NCBI GenBank assembly: GCA_041650295.1
Contig: JBAZLM010000003.1
Coordinates: forward strand, 2,933 to 66,932
DNA length: 64,000 nucleotides
Source: Candidatus Omnitrophota bacterium
GTDB lineage: Bacteria > Omnitrophota > Gorgyraeia > Gygaellales > Profunditerraquicolaceae
Direction: 5' to 3'
Below are positions 1 to 57,434 of the stretch, one piece after another. Under the pieces are notes generated by a model. The model saw only the letters and a list, made by a program, of their open reading frames with translations, ran no database searches and was not told where the DNA came from. The position numbers were made by a program, and so were the translations under genes. Each line of letters starts with the position of its first letter. The stretch's first letter is position 1.

Positions 1-958
1 CTGAAGTTGCAAAAACCTGCCAAGATTTATGTGCTTTACTTAATTTTTTACCTAAATCCTGCGCTTGTTTGCGATTATTACAAAGTGCAAATACCGCCGC
101 CCCACTTCCAGACATCATAATTTTTTCTAAGCCTATGTCAGAAAATGCTTTTTTAACCTGATTAATTACAGGATAAAGACTGGTAGTAGCAATTTCTAAG
201 TCATTGATCAGGTATTTGCGCTCAAACCTACTGCCTTTTTCAAGTAACTCAGAAGTTAGCATTTTAACATTACACTTCTTTCTTGTCAACCCCGCACCTT
301 GTTTTATTTCCAACTTTTTCCCATCTTGGATTTGCACAAGGTGCGGGGTCAATCTAGAAAAATGCCTGTCTGCCAGCAGACAGGCATCAAATTTTTCATA
401 AACCAAAGGTGTAGAAACCTTAAGATTAGGATAAATCAGCACAAACCAAAGCTTAAGCTTCCGCAAAGAAGGTAGGGGCGCAATCTTATCTCCGCGTTGG
501 CTACCTATAGCAAATTTAGTATTATAAATAAAGAACGCCACATCGCTACCTAGCTTTGCCCCTAAAGTAGCCAACCTTTTGAGCGATAAATTTAATTTCC
601 AGTATTTATTTAATCCCCAAAGAACAGCCGCGGCATTGCTAGAGCCTCCACCTAAACCTGCTCCCACCGGAATATTCTTTTTAAGCTCTATATCTAAACC
701 TAAATTTATTTTCTTTTCTTCTTTCAATAACTCTACTGCCCGCCAACAAAGATTAGTAGCGTCAATAGGCACAAATTTATGATTACATTTAATTTTAATT
801 AAATTATCCGCGCGATTTCTTAAAGTAATCGCATCGGCTAAATCAATTCGGCAAAATAAAGTACTTAAATTATGAAATTTATCTTGGCGTTTATTTAAAA
901 TTTGCAGATAAAGATTTACTTTGGCGAAGGATTTAACTGATAACAAGGATGGCTTCAT
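1..958 (-). CDS. ispE: 4-diphosphocytidyl-2-C-methyl-D-erythritol kinase (IspE), 3' end beyond window; carries an in-frame 63-bp palindromic insertion
   Basis: Manual translation of the minus strand from ATG at 958: MKPSLLSVKSFAKVNLYLQI...PVGAGLGGGSSNAAAVL...MSGSGAAVFAL. These are GHMP-kinase/IspE motifs. The frame stays open to position 1. The ORF is not in the track because it runs off the window edge. Confidence 0.8.
   Translation of the reverse strand, partial: MKPSLLSVKSFAKVNLYLQILNKRQDKFHNLSTLFCRIDLADAITLRNRADNLIKIKCNHKFVPIDATNLCWRAVELLKEEKKINLGLDIELKKNIPVGAGLGGGSSNAAAVLWGLNKYWKLNLSLKRLATLGAKLGSDVAFFIYNTKFAIGSQRGDKIAPLPSLRKLKLWFVLIYPNLKVSTPLVYEKFDACLLADRHFSRLTPHLVQIQDGKKLEIKQGAGLTRKKCNVKMLTSELLEKGSRFERKYLINDLEIATTSLYPVINQVKKAFSDIGLEKIMMSGSGAAVFALCNNRKQAQDLGKKLSKAHKSWQVFATS
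286..352 (-). repeat. Palindromic element (family 1 core) inserted in-frame within ispE: TTGACCCCGCACCTTGT-N31-ACAAGGTGCGGGGTTGAC
   Basis: A perfect 14-bp inverted repeat at 289-302 and 336-349 has the same CCCCGCACCTT core as the intergenic elements. Its length is 63 bp (21 codons) with no stop in the ispE frame. Confidence 0.6.
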
Positions 959-3868: not shown

Positions 3869-4753
3869 CTAATAAATAACTTTATTCAGCGGATACTCAA
3901 TAATCCCGCAAGCACCAGCTTCTTTTAACTCCGGGATTAATATGCGCACTACTTTCTCATCAATAATTGTCTCAATCGCTACCCAACCGTCATCACTTAA
4001 ACCAGAAATTGTCGGTTTCTTTAAGGCGGGCAACTTGGCAATAACTTTAGCTAAATCTTCTTTTTTGACATTCATCTTTAAGCCAACTTTATCTTCAGCG
4101 GTAATTGCTCCTTCTAAAAGTAAAGCAATCTGCTCCATCTTGGTTTTCTTCCAATTATCTTGATAAGCACTTTTATTGGCTATAAATTGCGTGGTGGATT
4201 CACAAAGTGTAGCAATTTCAGTTAATTTATTAGCCCGCAGAGAGCTGCCAGTTTCCGTAAGCTCGACGATAGCATCGACTAAACCACCGCTTACTTTAAC
4301 TTCTGTAGCACCCCAACTAAATTCTACTTCCACCTTAACTTTATTTTTCTCAAAATAATCTTTGGTAACATTAACTAACTCTGTAGCAATGCGCTTTCCT
4401 TCTAAATCTTTTACTGTTTTTATACCAGAGTCCTGGGGAACCGCTAAAACCCATCTAACCTTACTCATACTTTGTTTAGCGTAAGTTAAGTTACTGACTC
4501 TAACTACATCAGATTTATTCTCTAAGATCCAATCATTACCGGTGATTCCGCAGTCCAATGCCCCATCTTGCACGTAACGCGACATCTCTTGAGCACGCAA
4601 CAAGGTACATTGAATTTCAACATCATCTATCGACGGGAAATAAGAACGCGAACTAGATAAATTCACATTAAATCCGGCTTTTTTAAGCATCTTAAAGGTC
4701 GCCTCTTGCAGGCTACCCTTAGGCAATCCTAATTTTAAAATCTTATCTTTCAC
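3869..4753 (-). CDS. hisG: ATP phosphoribosyltransferase, long form (HisG). The GTG start lies inside a repeat element
   Basis: 294 aa with KLGLPKGSL near the N-terminus and a C-terminal regulatory domain. The start is GTG at 4753-4751 (no in-frame ATG before the conserved motif). Confidence 0.85.
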
Positions 4754-4828
4754 CCCGCACCTTCTCCTTATTTATTCTAAACCCTACCCCTTCTTCAATT
4801 CTAAATACCAAGAAGGTGCGGGGTTCAT
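4751..4828 (-). repeat. Family-1 palindromic start-codon element (copy 1): ATGAACCCCGCACCTTCT...GGAGAAGGTGCGGGGTG
   Basis: Inverted 13-nt arms CCCCGCACCTTCT / AGAAGGTGCGGGG. The terminal GTG is the hisG start. The 5' ATG opens uORF MNPAPSWYLELKKG*. An SD-like GAGGAAAG sits 6 nt upstream of that ATG. Confidence 0.6.
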
Positions 4829-13243: not shown

Positions 13244-13858
13244 CTAACCTAGCTTTACCCGATTCCCCCGCAAAGCCACCTTACCTTCAACAAACAATTT
13301 AATCACTTGTGGATAAAGTTTATGTTCAAGAGCATGTATCTTTTTTTCAAGCGAAGTTAAAGTTTCTTGTCGACCAAACTTTAATTCATTTTGTAAAATA
13401 ATTGGACCGTGATCAACTTGTGCATCGACAAAATGCACTGTCACTCCGGTAGAGCGAACCTTACGATTAAAAGCATCTTTGATTGCTTGTGAACCTTTAA
13501 AAGCCGGTAATAATGAAGGGTGGATATTGATAATCCGATTGTGATATTGCTTAACAAAAGCCGGAGTTAAAATACGCATAAACCCTGCCAAGGCAATTAA
13601 ATTAATCTTATAGCTCTTTAACCTTTGTATGATTGCAGTTTCAAAATCAAGGCGGCTAGCAAAGTCTTGACGATCAACCAGAATAGTAGCTACTTTGGAT
13701 CTTTGGGCGCGCTTAATTACCAAAGCTTGCGCTTTATCACAAACCAATACCACTAAATTAACTTTAATTTTTTTTTGTTTAATCGCTTTAACGATTGCTG
13801 CAAAATTGCTACCGTTACCAGAAGCAAAGATCGCTAAATTGATTCCTCGCTTTTTCAT
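13244..13858 (-). CDS. purN: Phosphoribosylglycinamide formyltransferase
   Basis: 204 aa. LAIFASGNGSNF, the INIHPSLLP formyltransferase motif and HFVD. Confidence 0.85.
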   Translation of the reverse strand: MKKRGINLAIFASGNGSNFAAIVKAIKQKKIKVNLVVLVCDKAQALVIKRAQRSKVATILVDRQDFASRLDFETAIIQRLKSYKINLIALAGFMRILTPAFVKQYHNRIINIHPSLLPAFKGSQAIKDAFNRKVRSTGVTVHFVDAQVDHGPIILQNELKFGRQETLTSLEKKIHALEHKLYPQVIKLFVEGKVALRGNRVKLG

Positions 13859-15259: not shown

Positions 15260-15849
15260 GATTTTCTAATTTTTAAGAAATTGAAAAAACCTAATAATAA
15301 ACCGATTACTAAAAGTGCCCCGGAAGGCATACCAAAAACAAATGCCGGTTCAAATCCCGGAATTAAAGTATGGCTAAAAATCTGCCCAGCACCTAAAAAT
15401 TCCCTAATTGCTGAAATAAGTACCAGAGCCAAAGTAAACCCCACCCCCATTCCTAAACCATCTAAAAAAGATTTGAGCAAATTGTTCTTACAAGCAAATG
15501 CCTCGGCACGACCTAAAACTATACAATTAACTACAATTAAAGGAACATATATGCCTAAAGCCCGATCCAGTACCGGACTATAAGCTTTTAGAATTAATTC
15601 AATTATCGTAACAAAAGTAGCAATGATGACAATAAAGCAAGGAATACGTATCTTATTAGGAATAAAATTCTTTACTAAAGAAATAATTACACTTGAACCC
15701 AAAAGTACAAAAGTCGCAGCTATTCCCATTCCGATCGCATTAACTACCGATACAGAAACTGCTAATGTTGGACACAATCCCAAAGCCAAAACAAATGTGG
15801 GATTTTCTTTAATTATGCCTTTAGTAAATTCCTTAATTAAATTCTTCAC
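15256..15849 (-). CDS. rnfE: Rnf complex subunit E. The GTG start lies inside a repeat element
   Basis: The N-terminus aligns with E. coli RsxE (LGLCPTLAV; NCIVLGRAEAFA). Confidence 0.85.
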   Translation of the reverse strand: MKNLIKEFTKGIIKENPTFVLALGLCPTLAVSVSVVNAIGMGIAATFVLLGSSVIISLVKNFIPNKIRIPCFIVIIATFVTIIELILKAYSPVLDRALGIYVPLIVVNCIVLGRAEAFACKNNLLKSFLDGLGMGVGFTLALVLISAIREFLGAGQIFSHTLIPGFEPAFVFGMPSGALLVIGLLLGFFNFLKIRKS

Positions 15850-15931
15850 CCCGCACCTTCTCCTATATTATTAATTAATTTTAACCCTCACTCCTTCCAA
15901 CAATTGAGTTCAAAGAAAGTGCGGGGTTCAT
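15847..15931 (-). repeat. Family-1 palindromic start-codon element (copy 2) at the rnfD|rnfE junction
   Basis: ATGAACCCCGCACTTTCTTTG...GGAGAAGGTGCGGGGTG. The uORF ATG overlaps the rnfD TGA (ATGA). The terminal GTG is the rnfE start. Confidence 0.6.
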
Positions 15932-25609: not shown

Positions 25610-27619
25610 CTATTCATTAATTAATTGTTTAATCTCATCTAAATGCTTACGCGCTTCAGCTTCACCGCGGCGGGCAAACTCATCGGCTTTATGTAGCTCT
25701 AACCAAAACAAACCGGTAGTATCCGGATGTAAAACAATGTCTGCCAACTCCCCTTCACGCCGAGCAACTTCCGATTGCAAAACCTCAACGCTACTAAAAA
25801 TAATATCAACAATATTTAAATTCAAAATACCCTTTAACCAACTAAAAAAATTAAAACCTTTTTGCAACTGATTAGCTTGACCAACCGCAGGAATAGTTTC
25901 TTTAAGCCTAGCCAGCTGTTTTAAAATATCTTCCCGCGATGGAGTAACATTAACGGCAATAATCTTTCTAATCCCCATCTGCATCAAAGGCTCAGTCGGT
26001 AGAGGATAAGTTACCCCTCCATCAAAAAGGATCTCTTCTTTAAATTTAAAAGGTGCAAAGACCCCCGGCATCGAACAGCTGGCCATTATAGCATCAACCA
26101 GCAAACCTTTATCAAAAATTTTTGGTTCTTTTTTGTGCACATTGCTAGCAATTATCTTTAAAGGCAACTTTACATCATAAAAAGTTTTATCCCCGAACTG
26201 CTTTTTTAAAAAACGGTACAACTTATTACCTTTAATAAAACCAAAACGCGGGAAAGTTATATCAATTAATCCCCAAATGTGCTTAGGCTCTTTAAATTCT
26301 CTAATAATATCTAGAATTTCACCGCTACTTTTACCAATTGCCCAAAGACTAGCAATTAAAGAACCAATACTAGAGCCAACGATTGTATCGATGGGTATCT
26401 TTTCTTCTTCAATAACTTTTAACACCCCCACATGACAAAAACCATAGCCCACCCCTACCCCTAAAACTAAGCCAACCTGACAATCACCGAGGTTTCTAGC
26501 GATTCTTCTCACCGCTTTAGAGTATTCACTATCCGGTTGATCGATAATTTGCCGATCAGGAGCTTGAGATTCTATTTTAGGAATAGTGGCAAAGATATCC
26601 TGGCCTAAAATATCCAATTGATCGCTATGATTAATTTTGGCCAATTTATATTCATTAACAATAGTAATAATTTTTTTCGCATCAAAATTAAAATCATTCT
26701 CTAAACGACTAATTAAATTGTTGGTACGCTTTAAATCTAAAGGATCCGGACTAGTCAGGATATGGATAAGATCGGACTGGTTGAGGATGGTAATCATAGC
26801 CTGATCCATCGCCACAGGCAAATCTAAAATAATATAATGATAATCATTCACCAGAATGCTAACTATCTCAATTAATCTTTTAAGGCAAGCAGGATTATTC
26901 TCCTGATAATAAAAACAAAATAAGTCTATACCAAAGCTACTTTTTAAAAGATAGTCTTTTGGTAAAGTATAGATATCCGAAGCAGTGGATAAATCAAAGA
27001 TTGGCGGTTGCTCTATCCCCAATTTAGCCGGTAAAGAGTGTGGTCTACCGCAAGGCAAGATATCTAAAATAATCACTGATTTATGCGTTTCGCGATTTAA
27101 ACTTAAGCCCAAATTTAAAGCATAAATAGTTTTCCCCGCTTGAGCATAAGAACTAAAAATAGAGATAACTGTGCTTTCAAAGATTTTTTTCTGATGCACA
27201 TCTTTATGTTTAAGGCGTCGACTTAACGTCCGACTTAAATCAATTGCCAGATGAGGAATTTTTTGTAAAACATCATCAAAATCTTCTTTTTTAATTACCA
27301 AAATAACACAATCGTTAATCGCTTCACTAGTCACCGAGTGCGCTTCACTAGTTAACAATGAAATAATCCCAAAATATTTACCGCGATGTAAATACTCTAA
27401 AACTGATTGCTTGCCATTTTGATCTTTGGTATAAATCTGCACTCGGCCAGAGATAATGCAATAAAAAGCGCAAGGGTTAGCCCCTTGCGCATAAATAATT
27501 TGCCCCTTGCGATATTCAACGATCTGACTTTTAGCGTTAATTATTGCCAGCTGGCCTTTACTTAGACCAGCAAAAAAAGGTAATTCTTTTATAATAAATT
27601 CTTTATCTTTGGGATTCAC
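25610..27619 (-). CDS. Cyclic-nucleotide-binding (CAP effector) domain / ParA-MinD-like NTPase-like / patatin-like phospholipase fusion protein. The GTG start lies inside a repeat element
   Basis: N-terminal cNMP-binding beta-barrel (GQIIYAQGANPCAFYCIISGRVQIY...YFGIISLL). The central region resembles deviant ParA/MinD (SYAQAGKT). The C-terminus is patatin with GxGxxG and GSSIGS (GxSxG). Confidence 0.65.
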   Translation of the reverse strand: MNPKDKEFIIKELPFFAGLSKGQLAIINAKSQIVEYRKGQIIYAQGANPCAFYCIISGRVQIYTKDQNGKQSVLEYLHRGKYFGIISLLTSEAHSVTSEAINDCVILVIKKEDFDDVLQKIPHLAIDLSRTLSRRLKHKDVHQKKIFESTVISIFSSYAQAGKTIYALNLGLSLNRETHKSVIILDILPCGRPHSLPAKLGIEQPPIFDLSTASDIYTLPKDYLLKSSFGIDLFCFYYQENNPACLKRLIEIVSILVNDYHYIILDLPVAMDQAMITILNQSDLIHILTSPDPLDLKRTNNLISRLENDFNFDAKKIITIVNEYKLAKINHSDQLDILGQDIFATIPKIESQAPDRQIIDQPDSEYSKAVRRIARNLGDCQVGLVLGVGVGYGFCHVGVLKVIEEEKIPIDTIVGSSIGSLIASLWAIGKSSGEILDIIREFKEPKHIWGLIDITFPRFGFIKGNKLYRFLKKQFGDKTFYDVKLPLKIIASNVHKKEPKIFDKGLLVDAIMASCSMPGVFAPFKFKEEILFDGGVTYPLPTEPLMQMGIRKIIAVNVTPSREDILKQLARLKETIPAVGQANQLQKGFNFFSWLKGILNLNIVDIIFSSVEVLQSEVARREGELADIVLHPDTTGLFWLELHKADEFARRGEAEARKHLDEIKQLINE

Positions 27620-27694
27620 TCCGCACCTTCTTCTTTATTCGCTACCTAACCCGCACCTCTTAATATATAAATACAAAGAAGATGCGGGGTTCAT
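27617..27694 (-). repeat. Family-1 palindromic start-codon element (copy 3)
   Basis: ATGAACCCCGCATCTTCTTTG...AGAAGAAGGTGCGGAGTG. The uORF ATG directly follows the GH1 TAA (TAAATG). The terminal GTG is the start of the downstream gene. Confidence 0.55.
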
Positions 27695-32945: not shown

Positions 32946-33572
32946 TTATTGATGCTCCTCTAAAAACTTTTGTAAATCTTTAGCTAAAGGTGCTTCTATA
33001 GTCACTAGTTTTGCCGTTTGTGGATGCTCAAACTCTAAATGTTGAGCATGTAAACAAACTCTTTTGGCCCGCAAAGCAAAATCTTTACGAAAAACAAATT
33101 TATCTTCCCCAACCAGAGGATGACCAATTCCTTTAAAATGAATACGAATCTGATTAGTTCTACCAGTAACCGGAGAGATCTCTACTACACAATAATTACT
33201 TTTTTGTTCTATAATTTTATATTTTGTAATCGCACTCTTACCTTCAATCGCTACGCTAATCGTTCCTTGAGCATGCGCTAATTTTCCGTGCACAAAAGCA
33301 AAATACTTTTTACTAACCTGGCGATTTCTAAAAGCATCCGCCATTTTAGCTTCTATGGCTTTAGATTTAGCATAAATAACTAACCCGGAAGTATCGCGAT
33401 CCAACCGATGACAAGGATAAAGCTGATAAACTAACCCTCTGTCTTTAGCGTCTTGATTTAAAATACTGGTTAACGTGCGCGATTCATTTTTTGGCGTCGG
33501 TACGCATAACAAGCCCGCCGGCTTGTCTACAATCAAAAGATAATCATCTTCAAAAACAATCGGAATATTCAC
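32946..33572 (-). CDS. RluA-family pseudouridine synthase. The GTG start lies inside a repeat element
   Basis: HRLDRDTSGLVIYAK catalytic motif. 208 aa. Confidence 0.75.
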   Translation of the reverse strand: MNIPIVFEDDYLLIVDKPAGLLCVPTPKNESRTLTSILNQDAKDRGLVYQLYPCHRLDRDTSGLVIYAKSKAIEAKMADAFRNRQVSKKYFAFVHGKLAHAQGTISVAIEGKSAITKYKIIEQKSNYCVVEISPVTGRTNQIRIHFKGIGHPLVGEDKFVFRKDFALRAKRVCLHAQHLEFEHPQTAKLVTIEAPLAKDLQKFLEEHQ

Positions 33573-33643
33573 CCAGCACCTTCTCTTTATTCATCTAACC
33601 CTACATCTTCTATATTTAAATATCAAGAAAGTGCGGGGTTCAT
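33570..33643 (-). repeat. Family-1 palindromic start-codon element (copy 4)
   Basis: ATGAACCCCGCACTTTCTTGA...GAGAAGGTGCTGGGTG. The uORF ATG overlaps the nadA TAA (TAATG). Confidence 0.55.
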
Positions 33644-38263: not shown

Positions 38264-39220
38264 TTACCGGCAGTGCATTAGATCCCCGCTACTCACTTTT
38301 ATCATCACTCCGGAATCCTTGCGAATCAGCAATGCTCCGTCAATATCGATATCTTGCGCCATCCCCTCAATATGTTTATCCTGGCAGTATACTTTAACCC
38401 GCTTACCCAAAGTAAGCCCAAAATGACGCCACTTCTCTACAATGGCCATATTCCCTTTTTTCTCTAATAAAAAATAATTCTCCTCTAATCTAAACAAAAG
38501 CTCCTGTAATAGCGTTACCCGGTTAACCGGTTGATCCAGCTGCTCTCTTAATGAAGTGGCTTGAGCAATTAAAGACTTCTTATCGTTATTCACATTTAGA
38601 CCGATTCCGATGACAATAAAATTAACTTTATCTACTTCAGCGTTCATCTCCGTTAAAATTCCGGCTAATTTCTTATTATGAATTAATACATCATTGGGCC
38701 ATTTAATCTGACTATCGATATCGCAAACCTCCTTTACCGCTTCACAGATACTCACCGCACTCAAAAGAGTTAAAATTGGTGAAACCGCTGGGGCAATCTT
38801 TGGTCTTAGAATTAATGAAAGGTAAATTCCTTTATATTTTGGCGAAGACCACTCTCTACCTAATCTGCCTCTGCCTTTAGTCTGTGATTCCGCTAATACC
38901 AAAGTTCCGCTAGCTGCTCCCTGCATCCCCAACTCCATCGCTAAATTCATCGTAGAATTTAAATAATCAAAATATTTAATTTTTTTACCGATAAACTTGG
39001 TGCGTAGATTACGTAAAACTTCAAAAGGAAAGAGCCGATCCGGACAAGACTGTAAACGATAACCCAAATGCGGCACTGCTTCAATTTCATAACCAGAATC
39101 TTTTAATTCCTGAATATGTTTCCACAACCCCTGACGACTAATCCCTAAATTCTTACTGATCTGATCGCCAGAAAGATAATCGTGTTCTTTACTTAGATAA
39201 TCGAGTATTTTTTCTTTCAC
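38264..39220 (-). CDS. birA: Bifunctional biotin-[acetyl-CoA-carboxylase] ligase / biotin operon repressor. The GTG start lies inside a repeat element
   Basis: N-terminal HTH (LSGDQISKNLGISRQGLWKHI) plus the BPL catalytic domain (GRGRLGREW). Confidence 0.8.
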   Translation of the reverse strand: MKEKILDYLSKEHDYLSGDQISKNLGISRQGLWKHIQELKDSGYEIEAVPHLGYRLQSCPDRLFPFEVLRNLRTKFIGKKIKYFDYLNSTMNLAMELGMQGAASGTLVLAESQTKGRGRLGREWSSPKYKGIYLSLILRPKIAPAVSPILTLLSAVSICEAVKEVCDIDSQIKWPNDVLIHNKKLAGILTEMNAEVDKVNFIVIGIGLNVNNDKKSLIAQATSLREQLDQPVNRVTLLQELLFRLEENYFLLEKKGNMAIVEKWRHFGLTLGKRVKVYCQDKHIEGMAQDIDIDGALLIRKDSGVMIKVSSGDLMHCR

Positions 39221-39297
39221 CCCGCACCTTCTAATTATTCATTAATCTTAAACCACCGCGCCTTCTAATATTATTCAAAAGAAGGTGCGGGGTTCAT
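39218..39297 (-). repeat. Family-1 palindromic start-codon element (copy 5)
   Basis: ATGAACCCCGCACCTTCTTTTGAATAA...TTAGAAGGTGCGGGGTG. The uORF ATG overlaps the upstream TGA (ATGA). Confidence 0.6.
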
Positions 39298-40358: not shown

Positions 40359-41490
40359 GTAGTTTTTTAACCACGGGAGGTAATTTTTCTAACAGATAAT
40401 CAATATCACTTTCGGTGGTCCAGCGACCCAGAGTTATTCTTAAAGATCCATGAGCAGTTCCATGATCTAAACCAATCGCTAATAAAACATGTGAAGGCTC
40501 TAAAGAGCTCGAGGTACAGGCTGAACCGGTGGAGCAAGCGATCCCCAGCATGTCTAGGCTTAAAAGCATCGACTCCCCTTCAATATATTTAATCGAAAAA
40601 TTGACATTATTGGGTAAACGTTTAGTCGCGTGGCCATTAAGAATAACTTCGGGAATCTTTAAAGGAATCTCTTTAATTAATCTATCCCTTAAAGCACTTT
40701 GCAATTTAATTTCATCTTTCATATTCTTTTGACAAAGCTCAACTGCTTTAGCCAGACCAACTATCCCCGGAATATTGTGTGTAGAACCTCGTCTACCTCT
40801 CTCTTGGTCACCACCGCGCATAAAAGTCTCTAAACGTGTACCTTTGCGAATATACAAAGCACCCACACCTTTGGGACCATAAAATTTATGCGCCGCTAAT
40901 GATAATAGATCAACATTGAGCTCATTTACATTTATCGGGATATGACCCACTGTCTGCACAGCATCCGTATGAAAATAAATTCCTTTTTCTTTAGCAATTT
41001 TTCCCAAAATTTCAATTGGCTGCAATGTTCCAATTTCATTATTAGCGTGCATAATACTAATTAGAATAGTTTTGTCGGTAATCGCCTTTTTTAAATCTTC
41101 CGGCAAAACTAAACCATCTTTATCCACTCCTAAATAAGTAACTTGAAAACCTTTTTTTTCTAAAAACTTTAACGGCTCGCTAATCGCATGGTGCTCAATC
41201 GCTGAGGTAATAATATGGTTGCCTTTTTTTTCTAAAGCATAAGCCACACCCATAATCGCATAATTATCCGACTCAGTTCCCCCAGAAGTAAAAACGATCT
41301 CTTCGGGTTTAGCGCCGATAAAATCTGCCAAAGTTTGTCGACTATCCTCTAGAGCTTTCTTAGCTTCTTGTCCATAGGCATGCAAGCTAGAAGCATTACC
41401 AAATTTTTCAAAAAAATACGGCTCCATCGCTTTTAAAACTAACGGATCAGTGGGTGTAGTTGCCGCATAATCTAAATATACTTTCTTCAC
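40327..41490 (-). CDS. iscS: Cysteine desulfurase (IscS/NifS). The GTG start lies inside a repeat element
   Basis: SGGTESDN, the PLP Lys region SLAAHKFYGPKG, and active-site SSGSACTS. Confidence 0.85.
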   Translation of the reverse strand: MKKVYLDYAATTPTDPLVLKAMEPYFFEKFGNASSLHAYGQEAKKALEDSRQTLADFIGAKPEEIVFTSGGTESDNYAIMGVAYALEKKGNHIITSAIEHHAISEPLKFLEKKGFQVTYLGVDKDGLVLPEDLKKAITDKTILISIMHANNEIGTLQPIEILGKIAKEKGIYFHTDAVQTVGHIPINVNELNVDLLSLAAHKFYGPKGVGALYIRKGTRLETFMRGGDQERGRRGSTHNIPGIVGLAKAVELCQKNMKDEIKLQSALRDRLIKEIPLKIPEVILNGHATKRLPNNVNFSIKYIEGESMLLSLDMLGIACSTGSACTSSSLEPSHVLLAIGLDHGTAHGSLRITLGRWTTESDIDYLLEKLPPVVKKLRAMSPLYEEK

Positions 41491-41566
41491 CCCGCACCTT
41501 CTCTCTATTAATTAACTCTTACCCTACGCCTTCTAATGTCTAATTTAACGAAGGTGCGGGGTTCAT
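41488..41566 (-). repeat. Family-1 palindromic start-codon element (copy 6)
   Basis: ATGAACCCCGCACCTTCGTTAAATTAG...GAGAAGGTGCGGGGTG. Its ATG overlaps the TGA of a 7-codon mini-ORF that begins at the GTG of the adjacent family-2 element. Confidence 0.6.
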
Positions 41567-41582
41567 CTCTTAATTACCTCAT

Positions 41583-41654
41583 TCACCACGTTAGAAACAG
41601 GTTGTCGCAGACAACCGTAAATTATCTTTTTGCCTTGTTTCTAACGAGGTTCAT
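41583..41654 (-). repeat. Family-2 palindromic element (copy a), 72 nt, fused in-frame onto the 3' end of the PP-loop ATPase gene
   Basis: ATGAACCTCGTTAGAAACAAGG...GGTTGTCTGCGACAACCTGTTTCTAACGTGGTGAAT. It shares its termini with family 1. The upstream ORF reads through ...SMNLVRNKAKR* inside it. Confidence 0.6.
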
Positions 41655-55090: not shown

Positions 55091-55950
55091 TAATTTTTTC
55101 CACTAAAGAAGACCGACGACTAATTACTGAAATACCCGACACAAGCTCTTTTTCGCCTGGTGATCGAAACCTTTGTTTTCTGATTCATGGACTTACCGGC
55201 ACCGCCAAAGAGATGGGTTCAATTGCTAAAAATTTAAATAAAAACGGTTTTTCTGTCGCTTGCCCCTTAATGGCTAACCACAATAAATCTATCTCTTGCC
55301 TTAAGCGCACAAGTTGGCAAGAACTATATAATTCTGTACGCCAAGAATTTATTAAATATGCCCATGATTATGAGAATATTTTTGTGGCCGGCTTATCTTT
55401 TGGTGCTTTAATTGGAATTATGCTGGCTTACGAATTCCCAAAAAAAGTTAAAGCCTTAAATTGCTTCTCTCCCACTCTCTTCTTTGACGGTTGGGCCAAT
55501 CCTAAATTAAGATTTCTTTTACCACTAGTTTATAAAACACCGCTAAAATATTGTTTTTATCTTAAAGAAGGGCATCCTTATGGGATTAAAAATGAGAGGC
55601 TGCGTTCAAGAATTGAAAACTTCTATACAAAATCAGAATTATTTGATTACAGCAAAGTACATCTCTACGGATACCCCGTAATTCCGGTATCTAGCATGGA
55701 ACAGAATCATTTACTGGCAAAACAAGTAATGAAAATACTTCCCCTCGTAACTACTCCGATACAGCTGCTGGGTGCCAAAGACGACGACGTCACTAGCCCC
55801 AAAAACTCTTATTATATCTATAACCATATTGGTTCAAAAGATAAAGAGGTAATATTATTCGAAAATTCCTACCACATTATTATTGCAGATCAAGAAAGGG
55901 ATAAAGTTGCGGAAAAAACTTTATCTTTTTTTCAAAAATACAAAACTTAA
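55087..55950 (+). CDS. Alpha/beta-hydrolase fold esterase/lipase
   Basis: GLSFG nucleophile elbow. 287 aa. Confidence 0.55.
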   Translation: MIIFSTKEDRRLITEIPDTSSFSPGDRNLCFLIHGLTGTAKEMGSIAKNLNKNGFSVACPLMANHNKSISCLKRTSWQELYNSVRQEFIKYAHDYENIFVAGLSFGALIGIMLAYEFPKKVKALNCFSPTLFFDGWANPKLRFLLPLVYKTPLKYCFYLKEGHPYGIKNERLRSRIENFYTKSELFDYSKVHLYGYPVIPVSSMEQNHLLAKQVMKILPLVTTPIQLLGAKDDDVTSPKNSYYIYNHIGSKDKEVILFENSYHIIIADQERDKVAEKTLSFFQKYKT

Positions 55951-57434
55951 GATTTTTTTAAGGCTCTAATTAACGCTTCTTCGAAAAGTTCAACCCCTAA
56001 ATCAATCTCTTCTTCCGTAATATAAAAAGAAGGTGCAATGGTAAAGACGTTTTTATAATAACCACCAACGTCTAAAATTAAACCTCGGCGTTTTCCTTTT
56101 ACATCTAAAGAACCGCTTAAACCTAAATTAACAATCTTATCGGTGAGCTCTTTATTAGGCGTATAGCCGTCTTTTTCGCAGATCTCCATACGCAAAGCCA
56201 AACCAATTCCATCAACATCACCGATCTGAGGATATTTTTTCTGTAATTTCTTAAGTTGATCAATAAAATAACGACCTTTTTTAGGGATCGATAATGCAAA
56301 ATCAGACTCTTCAATTAATTTCATCACCGCCAACCCCGCAGTTGTCCCCAAGGTATTAGAGGAAAATGTCGCATGAGTAGAACCCGGAGGAAAAACATCC
56401 GGATTAATTAATTTCTCTTTAGCCCAGATTCCGCTAATCGGATTTAACCCATTAGTTAGTGCTTTACCAAAAACAATGATATCCGGGGTAATATTAAAAT
56501 GCTCAATCGCCCAGAACTTTCCCGTGCGGAAAAATCCCATTTGGATCTCATCGTCCACAAAAAGAATTCCGTAGCGATCTAAAATTTCTTTTAGTTTAGA
56601 ATAATACTCTTGCGGTGGAACAATATAACCACCAGTACCTTGAATCGCTTCAGCATAAAAAGCGGCAAACTCACATTTATTATTCTTCTTATTCACCACT
56701 GAATAATATTCAGTCTCAAAAAGTCTTTCAAACTGTTTTAAACAATATAAATCACAAAAATCTCTTTTCTTATCATATGGACATCTAAAACAATACGGAT
56801 ATGGAATAAACATTGCCCGGTCTCCAAAATGACCGAAACGTTCCCTATATCTAAAACTCGAGGTAATCGCCGAAGCCGCTAATGTCCTCCCGTGATAACC
56901 ACCCATAAAAGCAAAAACCAAACTTCTACCAGTATTATTACGCACTAACTTTAATGAATCCTCTAAAGCACTGGAACCTCCGACATTAAAATGAATTCTC
57001 CCTTTCTCTTCAAAAGTCCGCTGATTTTTCTGAGCTAATTTTGTTGCTAACTCAATTTTTTCAGTATGCAAATACTGGCAAGCTAGTTGTGGTAAGGTAT
57101 CGATTTGCTTTTTTAATGCTTCATTGAGTTGAGGATTACCATAACCAAAGTTCACCGCTGAATACCACATCTGCAAATCTAAAAATTCTGTCCCTTGATC
57201 ATCATAAAGATAGCTACCATGAGAGCGCTTAAATATATTTAACTTTTCCGCATAATGCACGGTATCTCCCCAAGAGCAATATTTTGCTTCCAGATCAAGC
57301 AACTCATTATGCGTAATATTCTTTTTAATTTTAGCACTTCTCTTAATCATCGCTTTTGAATTCACCCCGTTAGAAACAGGTTGCCAGAGGCAACCGTGGG
57401 GCTTCTCTTTTATCTTATTTCTAACGGGGTTCAT
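55947..57434 (-). CDS. Class-III PLP-dependent aminotransferase. The N-terminal 26 codons are encoded by a family-2 repeat element (true start may be the internal GTG or ATG)
   Basis: DDEIQMGFFRTGKFWA and FGKALTNG (PLP-Lys) motifs. The track ORF begins at the element's ATG: MNPVRNKIKEKPHGCLWQPVSNGVNS. Confidence 0.7.
   Translation of the reverse strand: MNPVRNKIKEKPHGCLWQPVSNGVNSKAMIKRSAKIKKNITHNELLDLEAKYCSWGDTVHYAEKLNIFKRSHGSYLYDDQGTEFLDLQMWYSAVNFGYGNPQLNEALKKQIDTLPQLACQYLHTEKIELATKLAQKNQRTFEEKGRIHFNVGGSSALEDSLKLVRNNTGRSLVFAFMGGYHGRTLAASAITSSFRYRERFGHFGDRAMFIPYPYCFRCPYDKKRDFCDLYCLKQFERLFETEYYSVVNKKNNKCEFAAFYAEAIQGTGGYIVPPQEYYSKLKEILDRYGILFVDDEIQMGFFRTGKFWAIEHFNITPDIIVFGKALTNGLNPISGIWAKEKLINPDVFPPGSTHATFSSNTLGTTAGLAVMKLIEESDFALSIPKKGRYFIDQLKKLQKKYPQIGDVDGIGLALRMEICEKDGYTPNKELTDKIVNLGLSGSLDVKGKRRGLILDVGGYYKNVFTIAPSFYITEEEIDLGVELFEEALIRALKKS
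57363..57434 (-). repeat. Family-2 palindromic element (copy b), 72 nt, in-frame with the aminotransferase
   Basis: ATGAACCCCGTTAGAAATAAG...GGTTGCCTCTGGCAACCTGTTTCTAACGGGGTGAAT. The ATG overlaps the upstream HAD-gene TGA (ATGA). Confidence 0.6.

Follow-up and report, generated by a model that had tools for sequence, protein, structure and literature searches.

Rickettsia is the best-known case of 'selfish DNA' that lies in frame within essential genes, and the same outcome is encountered here in a free-living or episymbiotic candidate phylum: in the window, a stretch of 64,000 nucleotides (nt) taken from the metagenome-assembled genome (36% G+C) of a Candidatus Omnitrophota bacterium, a short palindromic element, termed E63, lies within the reading frame of ispE, the gene for 4-diphosphocytidyl-2-C-methyl-D-erythritol kinase. 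Among the MITEs of bacteria (miniature inverted-repeat transposable elements), intragenic in-frame copies occur in Chunjie of Geobacter and Nezha of cyanobacteria. The same has been described for ERIC, the large BOX elements and the Anabaena MITEs (PMC10969869). The Rickettsia palindromic elements (RPEs), as far as they are portrayed in the summary of Ogata et al. (2000 Science 290:347) given in PMC10969869, measure ~100-150 bp, belong to families in which the entire sequence recurs in many genes, and are inserted in frame and translated. The 63-bp block that has been added to ispE is most probably a tiny non-autonomous element of the MITE type, which would have entered the gene long ago, been inherited with it and been lost precisely and repeatedly.

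With the RPEs, as depicted in that summary (PMC10969869), E63 shares that it is a short palindrome lying in frame in a housekeeping gene, where it adds an extra peptide outside the conserved fold core and leaves the host protein recognisable. It differs from them in its length of 59 nt, its host phylum, its detection at one gene only, its terminal repeats of 12-14 nt, its 4-bp target duplication and its polymorphism between near-identical strains. The preliminary description of this DNA had likened E63 to an RPE that enters a gene without destroying it, and the orthologue comparison, the empty alleles and the intact ispE bear this out: E63 works like an RPE. Membership in the RPE family, from which size, host and anatomy set it apart, is nevertheless implausible. 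The likeness to MITEs comprises a non-autonomous nature, terminal inverted repeats, a target duplication, the lack of own coding capacity and the occasional in-frame fusion with host open reading frames (ORFs); in E63 these take the form of a 59-nt core that encodes nothing of its own, terminal repeats at the exact boundaries and a fixed 4-bp duplication. Unlike most MITEs, E63 is much smaller, has termini that are common to unrelated phyla, and occupies one orthologous site across a clade instead of many sites per genome; in the window, in the second assembly described below (L131) and among the metagenome hits, only the termini are multi-copy, and the interior is not. We know of no parent insertion sequence of E63.

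The host gene and the parts of the element are arranged as follows; nearly all genes of the window are on the minus strand, and 'sense' refers to that strand of ispE.

1 to 958, minus strand: ispE, with its ATG at 958, identified by translation, TIGR00154, the GHMP domains and synteny
290 to 348, minus strand: E63 core, a 59-nt palindromic element (CCCCGCACCTTGTGCAAATCCAAGATGGGAAAAAGTTGGAAATAAAACAAGGTGCGGGG, sense), delimited by filled/empty pairs and a DNA alignment of nine orthologues
289 to 302, no strand assigned: inverted-repeat arm, left on the plus strand, equal to the 3' arm ACAAGGTGCGGGGT on sense; its bases CAAGGTGCGGG are invariant in 9/9 orthologue copies
336 to 349, no strand assigned: inverted-repeat arm, right on the plus strand, equal to the 5' arm ACCCCGCACCTTGT on sense; degenerate in some orthologues (L084, L129)
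286 to 289, minus strand: downstream copy of the target-site duplication (sense TTGA, plus TCAA), part of a TTGACA hexamer; a single TTGA is found in the empty alleles L081, L085 and L087
349 to 352, minus strand: upstream copy of the target-site duplication (sense TTGA, plus TCAA), with a boundary that is ambiguous within TTGAC

Within the window lie 319 of the 321 codons of ispE, the last two codons and the stop being located past its left end. The protein is 100% identical to a 321-residue sequence labelled ispE by NCBI (P0001), contains both the GHMP_kinases_N and the GHMP_kinases_C domain of Pfam, and scores 235 bits on the ispE equivalog TIGR00154, for which the cutoff is 138.7; given this score and the open frame, the gene is not a pseudogene. 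The perfect inverted repeat that the preliminary description had placed in the ispE frame was recovered by a repeat search: its 14-nt arms (289-302, ACCCCGCACCTTGT, and 336-349, ACAAGGTGCGGGGT) are 100% complementary and separated by 33 nt. The described span of 286-352 likewise resolves into TCAA (286-289), core (290-348) and TCAA (349-352). The inserted block consists of the 59-nt core and the 4-bp duplication, that is, 63 bp or 21 codons, as had been stated, and the inverted repeat starts at the first inserted base, the boundary being set by filled versus empty alleles. The terminal inverted repeats can be written as CCCCGCACCTTG...CAAGGTGCGGGG (12-14 nt) or, as a pair of termini, CCCCGCACCTT...AAGGTGCGGGG. 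E63 spans codons 203-224; the core and one copy of the duplication encode L203-G223 (LTPHLVQIQDGKKLEIKQGAG). As 59 + 4 nt make 21 codons and the used frame contains no stop codon, ispE stays open, and the translation ...LADRHFSRLTPHLVQIQDGKKLEIKQGAGLTRKKCNV...YPVINQ...MSGSGAAVFAL was reproduced. The element is not open in all six frames: five of six are open in the window copy, and in other copies the used frame plus one or two more; there is no evidence that it is designed for openness in every frame. On the sense strand, positions 280-395 have a predicted RNA folding energy of -57.3 kcal/mol, compared with -27.1 +/- 3.7 for shuffled sequences (z = -8.2).

The evidence for an insertion is unusually clean, comprising exact filled and empty alleles, some of them from the same well, a defined 4-bp duplication and an orthologous site that is occupied across a clade. 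In L081, a syntenic orthologue with 72% protein identity, TTTTCTAGGTTGACAAGAAAG stands where the window has ...AGATTGA, the 59-nt core and TTGACAAGAAAG, and this locus thus provides an exact empty site among the relatives, with further uninterrupted alleles on the near-identical contigs L085 and L087. In the alignment of L084 with L085, 2915 nt contain 9 mismatches and otherwise a single 63-bp indel at the ispE site; for L086 and L087, which stem from replicate samples of a single groundwater well, 1252 nt are aligned, with 1 mismatch and again this 63-bp indel. The two contig pairs are 99.7-99.9% identical and were assembled independently. A profile scan of contigs with an IspE alignment returned mostly distant IspE sequences of other phyla; among the matches listed there was one close Omnitrophota locus, L001, and its site is empty. 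An ordinary loop extension with a coincidental palindrome is very improbable, and so is an artefact, be it a pseudogene or a misassembly: the length of the IspE linker does vary among bacteria generally, but the 14-bp inverted repeat is perfect and the window contains 19 matches to its arm motif (at most 3 mismatches), where 2.2 are expected (9-fold; 0/100 shuffles reach 19), the 4-bp flanking repeats and the exact 63-bp indels recur between near-identical contigs of independent assemblies, insertions with these termini are also found in other genes and other phyla, the ORF is intact and exceeds the equivalog cutoff, and the window sequence is found again, identical over 10,958 nt, in a second assembly (L131).

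Among 120 Omnitrophota IspE proteins (58-75% identical), lengths fall into the classes 288/295/302/309/316/323/330, i.e. steps of 7 residues, which correspond to three forms of the linker.

Base form: KFD-x-FSG-LTRPRC; no DNA inserted
M7 form: adds CLPAGKA; 21 bp, matching a 12-bp palindrome; sometimes a tandem double
E63 form: adds LTPHLVQIQDGKKLNKKQGAG; 63 bp

The E63 module of 21 residues is present in 23/120 orthologues, always at the same site, and absent from 97/120 and from all solved IspE structures; its residues are lineage-specific extras, and no unrelated lineage was found to carry the segment. The second module, M7, had escaped the preliminary description and is located in the window as follows.

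362 to 387, minus strand: M7, likewise palindromic and in frame (sense ATGCCTGTCTGC tg GCAGACAGGCAT), a 21-bp, 7-residue insertion 9 nt upstream of E63

Its arms (362-373/376-387) form a perfect 12-bp inverted repeat 12 bp from the E63 palindrome. The peptide reads CLLADRH in the window and CLPAGKA in the consensus, for which the DNA consensus is TGCCTGCCGGCAGGCAAGGCT. M7 occurs in ~68/120 orthologues and can be absent, single or a tandem double, with at least 20 gains or losses on the tree; no further copy was found within the window. Together with the TTTTTCT that follows it, M7 scores as intrinsic-terminator-like, although it is inside a coding region. The length steps of 7 and 21 residues are accordingly due to two palindromic modules and not to misassembly. 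At the protein level, P0030 contains two tandem copies of E63. Other, longer inserts, e.g. FGGIQTSPLRKDKKYTAFGINPKQAPGFNLGLRRIDA and SNMLSINPEQASSFKPRRVERVG, are found in the same linker (window ~350-390) in P0045, P0046 and P0053, and the linker gives the impression of a hotspot at which elements of several types insert. When a profile of the doubled, 42-residue module was searched against 5.8 billion sequences, 317 candidates shared words with it and none reached E <= 10, an outcome that shows the rarity of the 21-residue peptide only.

In structural terms, the insertion amounts to a natural experiment on how a GHMP kinase, the enzyme being a drug target of the methylerythritol phosphate pathway, tolerates 21 additional residues. 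The base-form protein P0026 aligns with the IspE of M. tuberculosis (3pyd) in one stretch (residues 10-281 with 8-279), whereas the window protein aligns in two, between which 58 residues (193-249) face 32 (191-221), i.e. 26 extra. For the base form, an AlphaFold model reached a predicted local distance difference test (pLDDT) score of 93.5, a predicted TM-score (pTM) of 0.91 and TM-scores of 0.8-0.89 against solved IspE structures; the model of the window's own IspE (30 sequences; pLDDT 57.5, residues 177-265 below 50) was not used for mapping. In the base-form model, the E63 site maps to Q197/L198, the C-terminus of helix 185-198, before loop 199-204, and the M7 site to H194/F195; residues 191-200 are the lowest-confidence internal block (pLDDT 76). 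The preliminary description had raised the possibility of a surface loop; the modelled site is the end of a helix, with a loop adjoining it, a position that the IspE fold presumably tolerates.

E63 has relatives within the window, the intergenic palindromes of families 1 and 2, and these have been compared with it in detail.

4753-4823, 15849-15926, 27619-27689, 33572-33638, 39220-39292 and 41490-41561: family-1 copies of the window
4753 to 4823, minus strand: the first of these, a family-1 relative that occupies the start codon of hisG; L081, where the site is empty, reads AAAAAGATGAAAGATAAA, and the filled site reads ATGAA, core, TGAAAGATAAG
41586-41649 and 57365-57429: family-2 copies of the window
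L131:12309-12401, L131:15781-15853, L001:5751-5842 and L083:~13471-13640: further intergenic copies

At hisG, the comparison of the window with L081 provides another filled/empty pair, independent of ispE, and again reveals a 4-bp duplication, TGAA, which overlaps the start codon; the old ATG is displaced upstream, and the last G of the element together with the duplicated TG gives a new GTG. Both families resemble E63 in their terminal CCCCG(CACCTT), an A/T-rich interior, a 4-bp duplication (TGAA/TGGA versus TTGA) and their occurrence in the same genomes. The preliminary description had assigned E63 the same core as intergenic family 1. This stands, in the main, for the ends, where E63 shares 13/14 arm bases and the length of the target duplication with the intergenic copies and the terminal bases CCCCGCACCTT with the six family-1 copies of the window. 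It does not stand for the interior, which shows no significant similarity to the family-1 interiors (z 0.4-1.8) and is shorter; the six interiors of the window, in comparison, reach z 2.1-6.3 among each other and z 0.4-2.4 against the L001 copy, and the family-1 cores measure 67-78 nt versus 59 nt for E63. Of the family-1 arms (CCCCGCACCTTCT / AGAAGGTGCGGGG), the first 11 bases equal those of E63; at position 12, 9/9 E63 copies have G instead of C. Family 1 is further set apart by a conserved interior with a central third arm-like motif, its location on start codons and a AGAAGGTG Shine-Dalgarno-like motif with a new GTG, and E63 by its unrelated interior, arms with CTTGT instead of CTTCT and its intragenic location. 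E63 is thus a distinct subfamily that has its termini and duplication length in common with family 1, and both are probably mobilised by a common enzyme. That E63 lacks the ATG/GTG termini, as had been remarked earlier, is explained by its target, TTGA, in contrast to the TGAA of the start codon in intergenic copies. Within the window, every arm has a partner less than 80 nt away.

The termini extend well beyond these genomes. An exact-match scan of metagenomes of the Joint Genome Institute (JGI) for CCCCGCACCTTG-N20-50-CAAGGTGCGGGG returned 39 loci. Two of these (L091, L116) are copies of E63 that other Omnitrophota carry in ispE, and the remainder are different elements from G+C-rich genomes. 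Identical 4-mers flank 8/35 distinct metagenomic copies on both sides (0.14 expected), and the duplicated 4-mers vary by site (TGAA, CTGG, CCAG, CGAG, CTCG, TTGA). A second in-frame case was found in an M1 aminopeptidase gene of Acidobacteriota (L121:2234-2301), in which 68+4 = 72 nt add 24 residues (APHLGATGSGRDGEQQPRGQGAGL). This peptide occurs only in the L121 aminopeptidase and an 86% identical relative and is absent from 18 other homologues, one of them 75% identical; the arms are read in the same frame as in E63 (xPHL...QGAG). Elements that have these termini thus land in frame repeatedly. From L088 to L126, termini of 12 nt bound elements of 46-74 nt on G+C-rich contigs of other phyla. 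In one copy (L105:3275-3340), located 12 nt into a bioD-like gene, the GTG of the arm is in frame, and two larger repeat families, with the flanks CATTGCGAGGAG.../...CGACGAAGCAATG and TGTCATCCTGAG.../...CGAAGGATCTGC, enclose the hairpin as an inner module. A full-text search of the literature (arm sequence, Omnitrophica palindromes, MITEs at start codons) found no description of these elements; E63 and the set with the same termini are an undescribed element family. How such tiny elements, with termini of 11-12 nt shared across phyla and positions at start codons or in frame, are moved and choose their targets, and by which enzyme, is the broader question that they raise.

Several known classes of mobile or structured DNA were tried as identities of E63. 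REP/REPIN sequences, which are mobilised by RAYT, are short G+C-rich hairpins that are extragenic and not known to make a target duplication, and elements of the IS200/IS605 type are not known to make one either and insert beside a fixed tetra- or pentanucleotide; both identities are ruled out by the 4-bp duplication, which varies between sites. The motif AGAAGGTGCG resembles the IS5 terminal repeat, GGAAGGTGCG, but a relation to IS5 was rejected, since the motif faces outward at the element ends, opposite to IS5; the GGGG ends of the Tn3 type were likewise rejected for their wrong orientation. The context of syntenic housekeeping genes and the arm spacing of 33 nt led to the rejection of attC sites and of transcription-factor operators.

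The history of E63 was read from a neighbour-joining tree of IspE in which the variable region had been masked. The same site is occupied in species whose IspE proteins are only 60-75% identical. In six loci picked regardless of their arms, the interiors are 78% identical (~22% different), compared with 75% for the gene, and the E63 peptides have a mean identity of 61% versus 71% for the host proteins. Decayed relics exist at the same TTGA site, among them one of 54 nt in L130, which ranks second in closeness among the relatives of the window gene. E63 is a long-standing polymorphic resident of the ispE site across the clade and not a fresh landing. In the favoured course, E63 would have been inserted long ago, once or a few times, and then precisely lost again and again, perhaps with alleles exchanged by homologous recombination as well. 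This course could have proceeded in the following manner: E63 would have entered ispE at the Leu-Thr codons of an ancestor of an Omnitrophota clade, making the 4-bp TTGA duplication, and would then have been inherited with the gene. It may have decayed in some lineages and been removed precisely many times with restoration of the original sequence, either by slippage between the 4-8-bp direct repeats that flank the hairpin or by an element-specific excision. The outcome would be a patchy distribution and a presence/absence polymorphism even within one population, and E63 would represent a subfamily of the wider set with the same termini, which includes the start-codon elements of the window and the elements of other phyla.

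A number of observations weigh against this course. The 23 carriers are scattered on the tree, mostly as singletons, and parsimony requires at least 20 changes, for which it prefers gains, whereas a single gain entails 44 losses. The similarity of E63 is only weakly linked to that of its host (Mantel r = 0.29, p = 0.065), and in the six DNA copies the correlation between E63 and gene is negative. The arms are 93% identical, and their third codon positions 87.5% compared with 58% for the gene; only ~1% of the 8-codon windows of the gene reach this level, which far exceeds what neutral decay would have left after so long a time. Conserved arms beside a heavily decayed L130 suggest that the copies differ in age or that the arms are under selection. 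Slippage between perfect repeats does not fully account for the L084/L085 pair, because the left arm and left repeat (TTTAC) of L084 are degenerate, though the empty allele is 99.7% identical. Finally, no autonomous element with E63 termini and no transposase was identified, so that mobility is deduced from anatomy and polymorphism only.

The same observations could be accounted for by recurrent site-specific insertion, in which E63 would still be mobile and prefer TTGA within TTGACA, the patchiness reflecting gains. With absence at the root, 20 changes suffice, as against the 44 losses under a single gain; the carriers stand mostly alone beside near-identical empty alleles; the perfect arms of most copies, despite saturated synonymous sites, fit young copies of masters with functional termini; the six DNA copies do not co-diverge with the gene; and the sibling families are extremely target-specific, all of the at least 10 intergenic copies examined being on a start codon. 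Such a continuing mobility is a serious alternative, though rather less likely, since no E63-type copy, and hence no source, was found outside ispE in the 64-kb window, in ~10 kb of L131 beyond it or in the metagenome scan (which gave two E63-type hits, both in ispE), the interior difference of ~22% between species argues against a homogeneous recent pool, the L084 arm is degenerate in an allele 99.7% identical to the empty one, and the relics indicate long residence. Old entry with repeated precise loss thus remains the preferred account.

The target of E63 is part of a further sequence feature.

261 to 289, minus strand: candidate sigma-70-like promoter inside ispE, TTGACA-17 nt-TAAAAT preceded by TG, with 11/12 consensus matches

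Its -35 hexamer, TTGACA, contains the target TTGA, and since the 4-bp duplication rebuilds this hexamer, the motif is intact with E63 directly upstream. TTGACA-N17-TA(A/T)AAT is retained in the DNA of 12/12 orthologues, and the -10 region is the peak of third-codon-position conservation (in a stretch of 10 codons) of the whole gene. E63 might accordingly be a selected cis-element, functional as DNA or RNA through promoter modulation or an mRNA hairpin, with gain and loss acting as a switch and the 21 residues as a by-product. Arms conserved at synonymous positions would fit this, as would the TTGACA-N17-TAAAAT motif, which is retained in 12/12 orthologues and lies where synonymous conservation in the gene is highest; moreover, CAAGGTGCGGG, the arm next to TTGACA, is invariant in 9/9 copies while the distal arm varies in 3/9, an asymmetry that is unexpected for a hairpin or for transposase binding alone. 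The stem also contains one compensatory change, C-G to T-A in L128. Yet ~80% of the orthologues have the same promoter-like motif and no E63, the covariation is not significant (161/500 shuffles reach the observed value), the promoter is a candidate by sequence, and 3/9 copies were ascertained by their perfect arms; a cis-acting role is improbable, and a selected hairpin is not claimed in view of the covariation test. In a broader version that is just as improbable, E63 and its siblings would be a cross-phylum class of tiny elements with expression-harmless ends: the right end offers an AAGGTG Shine-Dalgarno-like motif and GTG, the arms open codons (xPHL...QGAG), and the duplication restores the signal that was hit, be it a start codon or the -35 hexamer. 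Within ispE, the reversible E63, which abuts the -35 hexamer of a conserved motif with its proximal arm invariant at synonymous sites, would then be no mere passenger and might be a heritable switch on the downstream glmU-prs cluster.

The genomic setting of ispE is conserved. The gene order GH94-hisG-TPR-transketolase N/C-ispE is common to the window and the orthologues, and 3' of ispE follow a glmU-like gene, prs and ribosomal protein genes. In Rfam at gathering thresholds, the window contains three tRNAs only, and no family corresponds to the elements.

The intergenic palindromes have peculiarities of their own. All copies examined (at least 10) are located exactly on a start codon and read, on the sense strand, ATGAA, core, TGAA (TGGA in L001 and L083). 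A leader ORF of 6-19 residues (MNPAPS...) begins at the displaced ATG, and the right arm provides the AGAAGGTG Shine-Dalgarno-like motif and a new GTG, paired in the hairpin with the anti-Shine-Dalgarno-like CACCTTCT. This arrangement suggests targeting of start codons or strong selection, with possible translational coupling. At 57365-57434, in the ORF 55947-57434 (minus strand), the family-2 copy of 65+4 = 69 nt allows in-frame read-through from the upstream ATG (MNPVRNKIKEKPHGCLWQPVSNGVNSK...), so that this ORF may have a 23-residue N-terminal in-frame insertion, unless its start is the internal GTG. Upstream of one gene, at 41490-41649, copies of family 2 and family 1 are stacked with 23 nt between them; that of family 2 is on the ATG of a 7-codon upstream ORF, the TGA of which overlaps the main start codon.

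Two minor observations concern the surroundings. In the same genome, ~2.4 kb past the left end of the window (L131:13376-14071), an L25/Ctc ribosomal protein gene is interrupted by an in-frame TAG (..GGSLENLL*EIEVE..), for which a sequencing error, a pseudogene or recoding may be responsible; in L081, the orthologue is one ORF of 229 residues. A G+C-rich hairpin family, GGGGACGGTTCT...AGAACCGTCCCC, occurs 3' of the GH94 gene in relatives in 1-2 copies (L083:6070-6170, L129:1045-1090) and is probably terminator-like.

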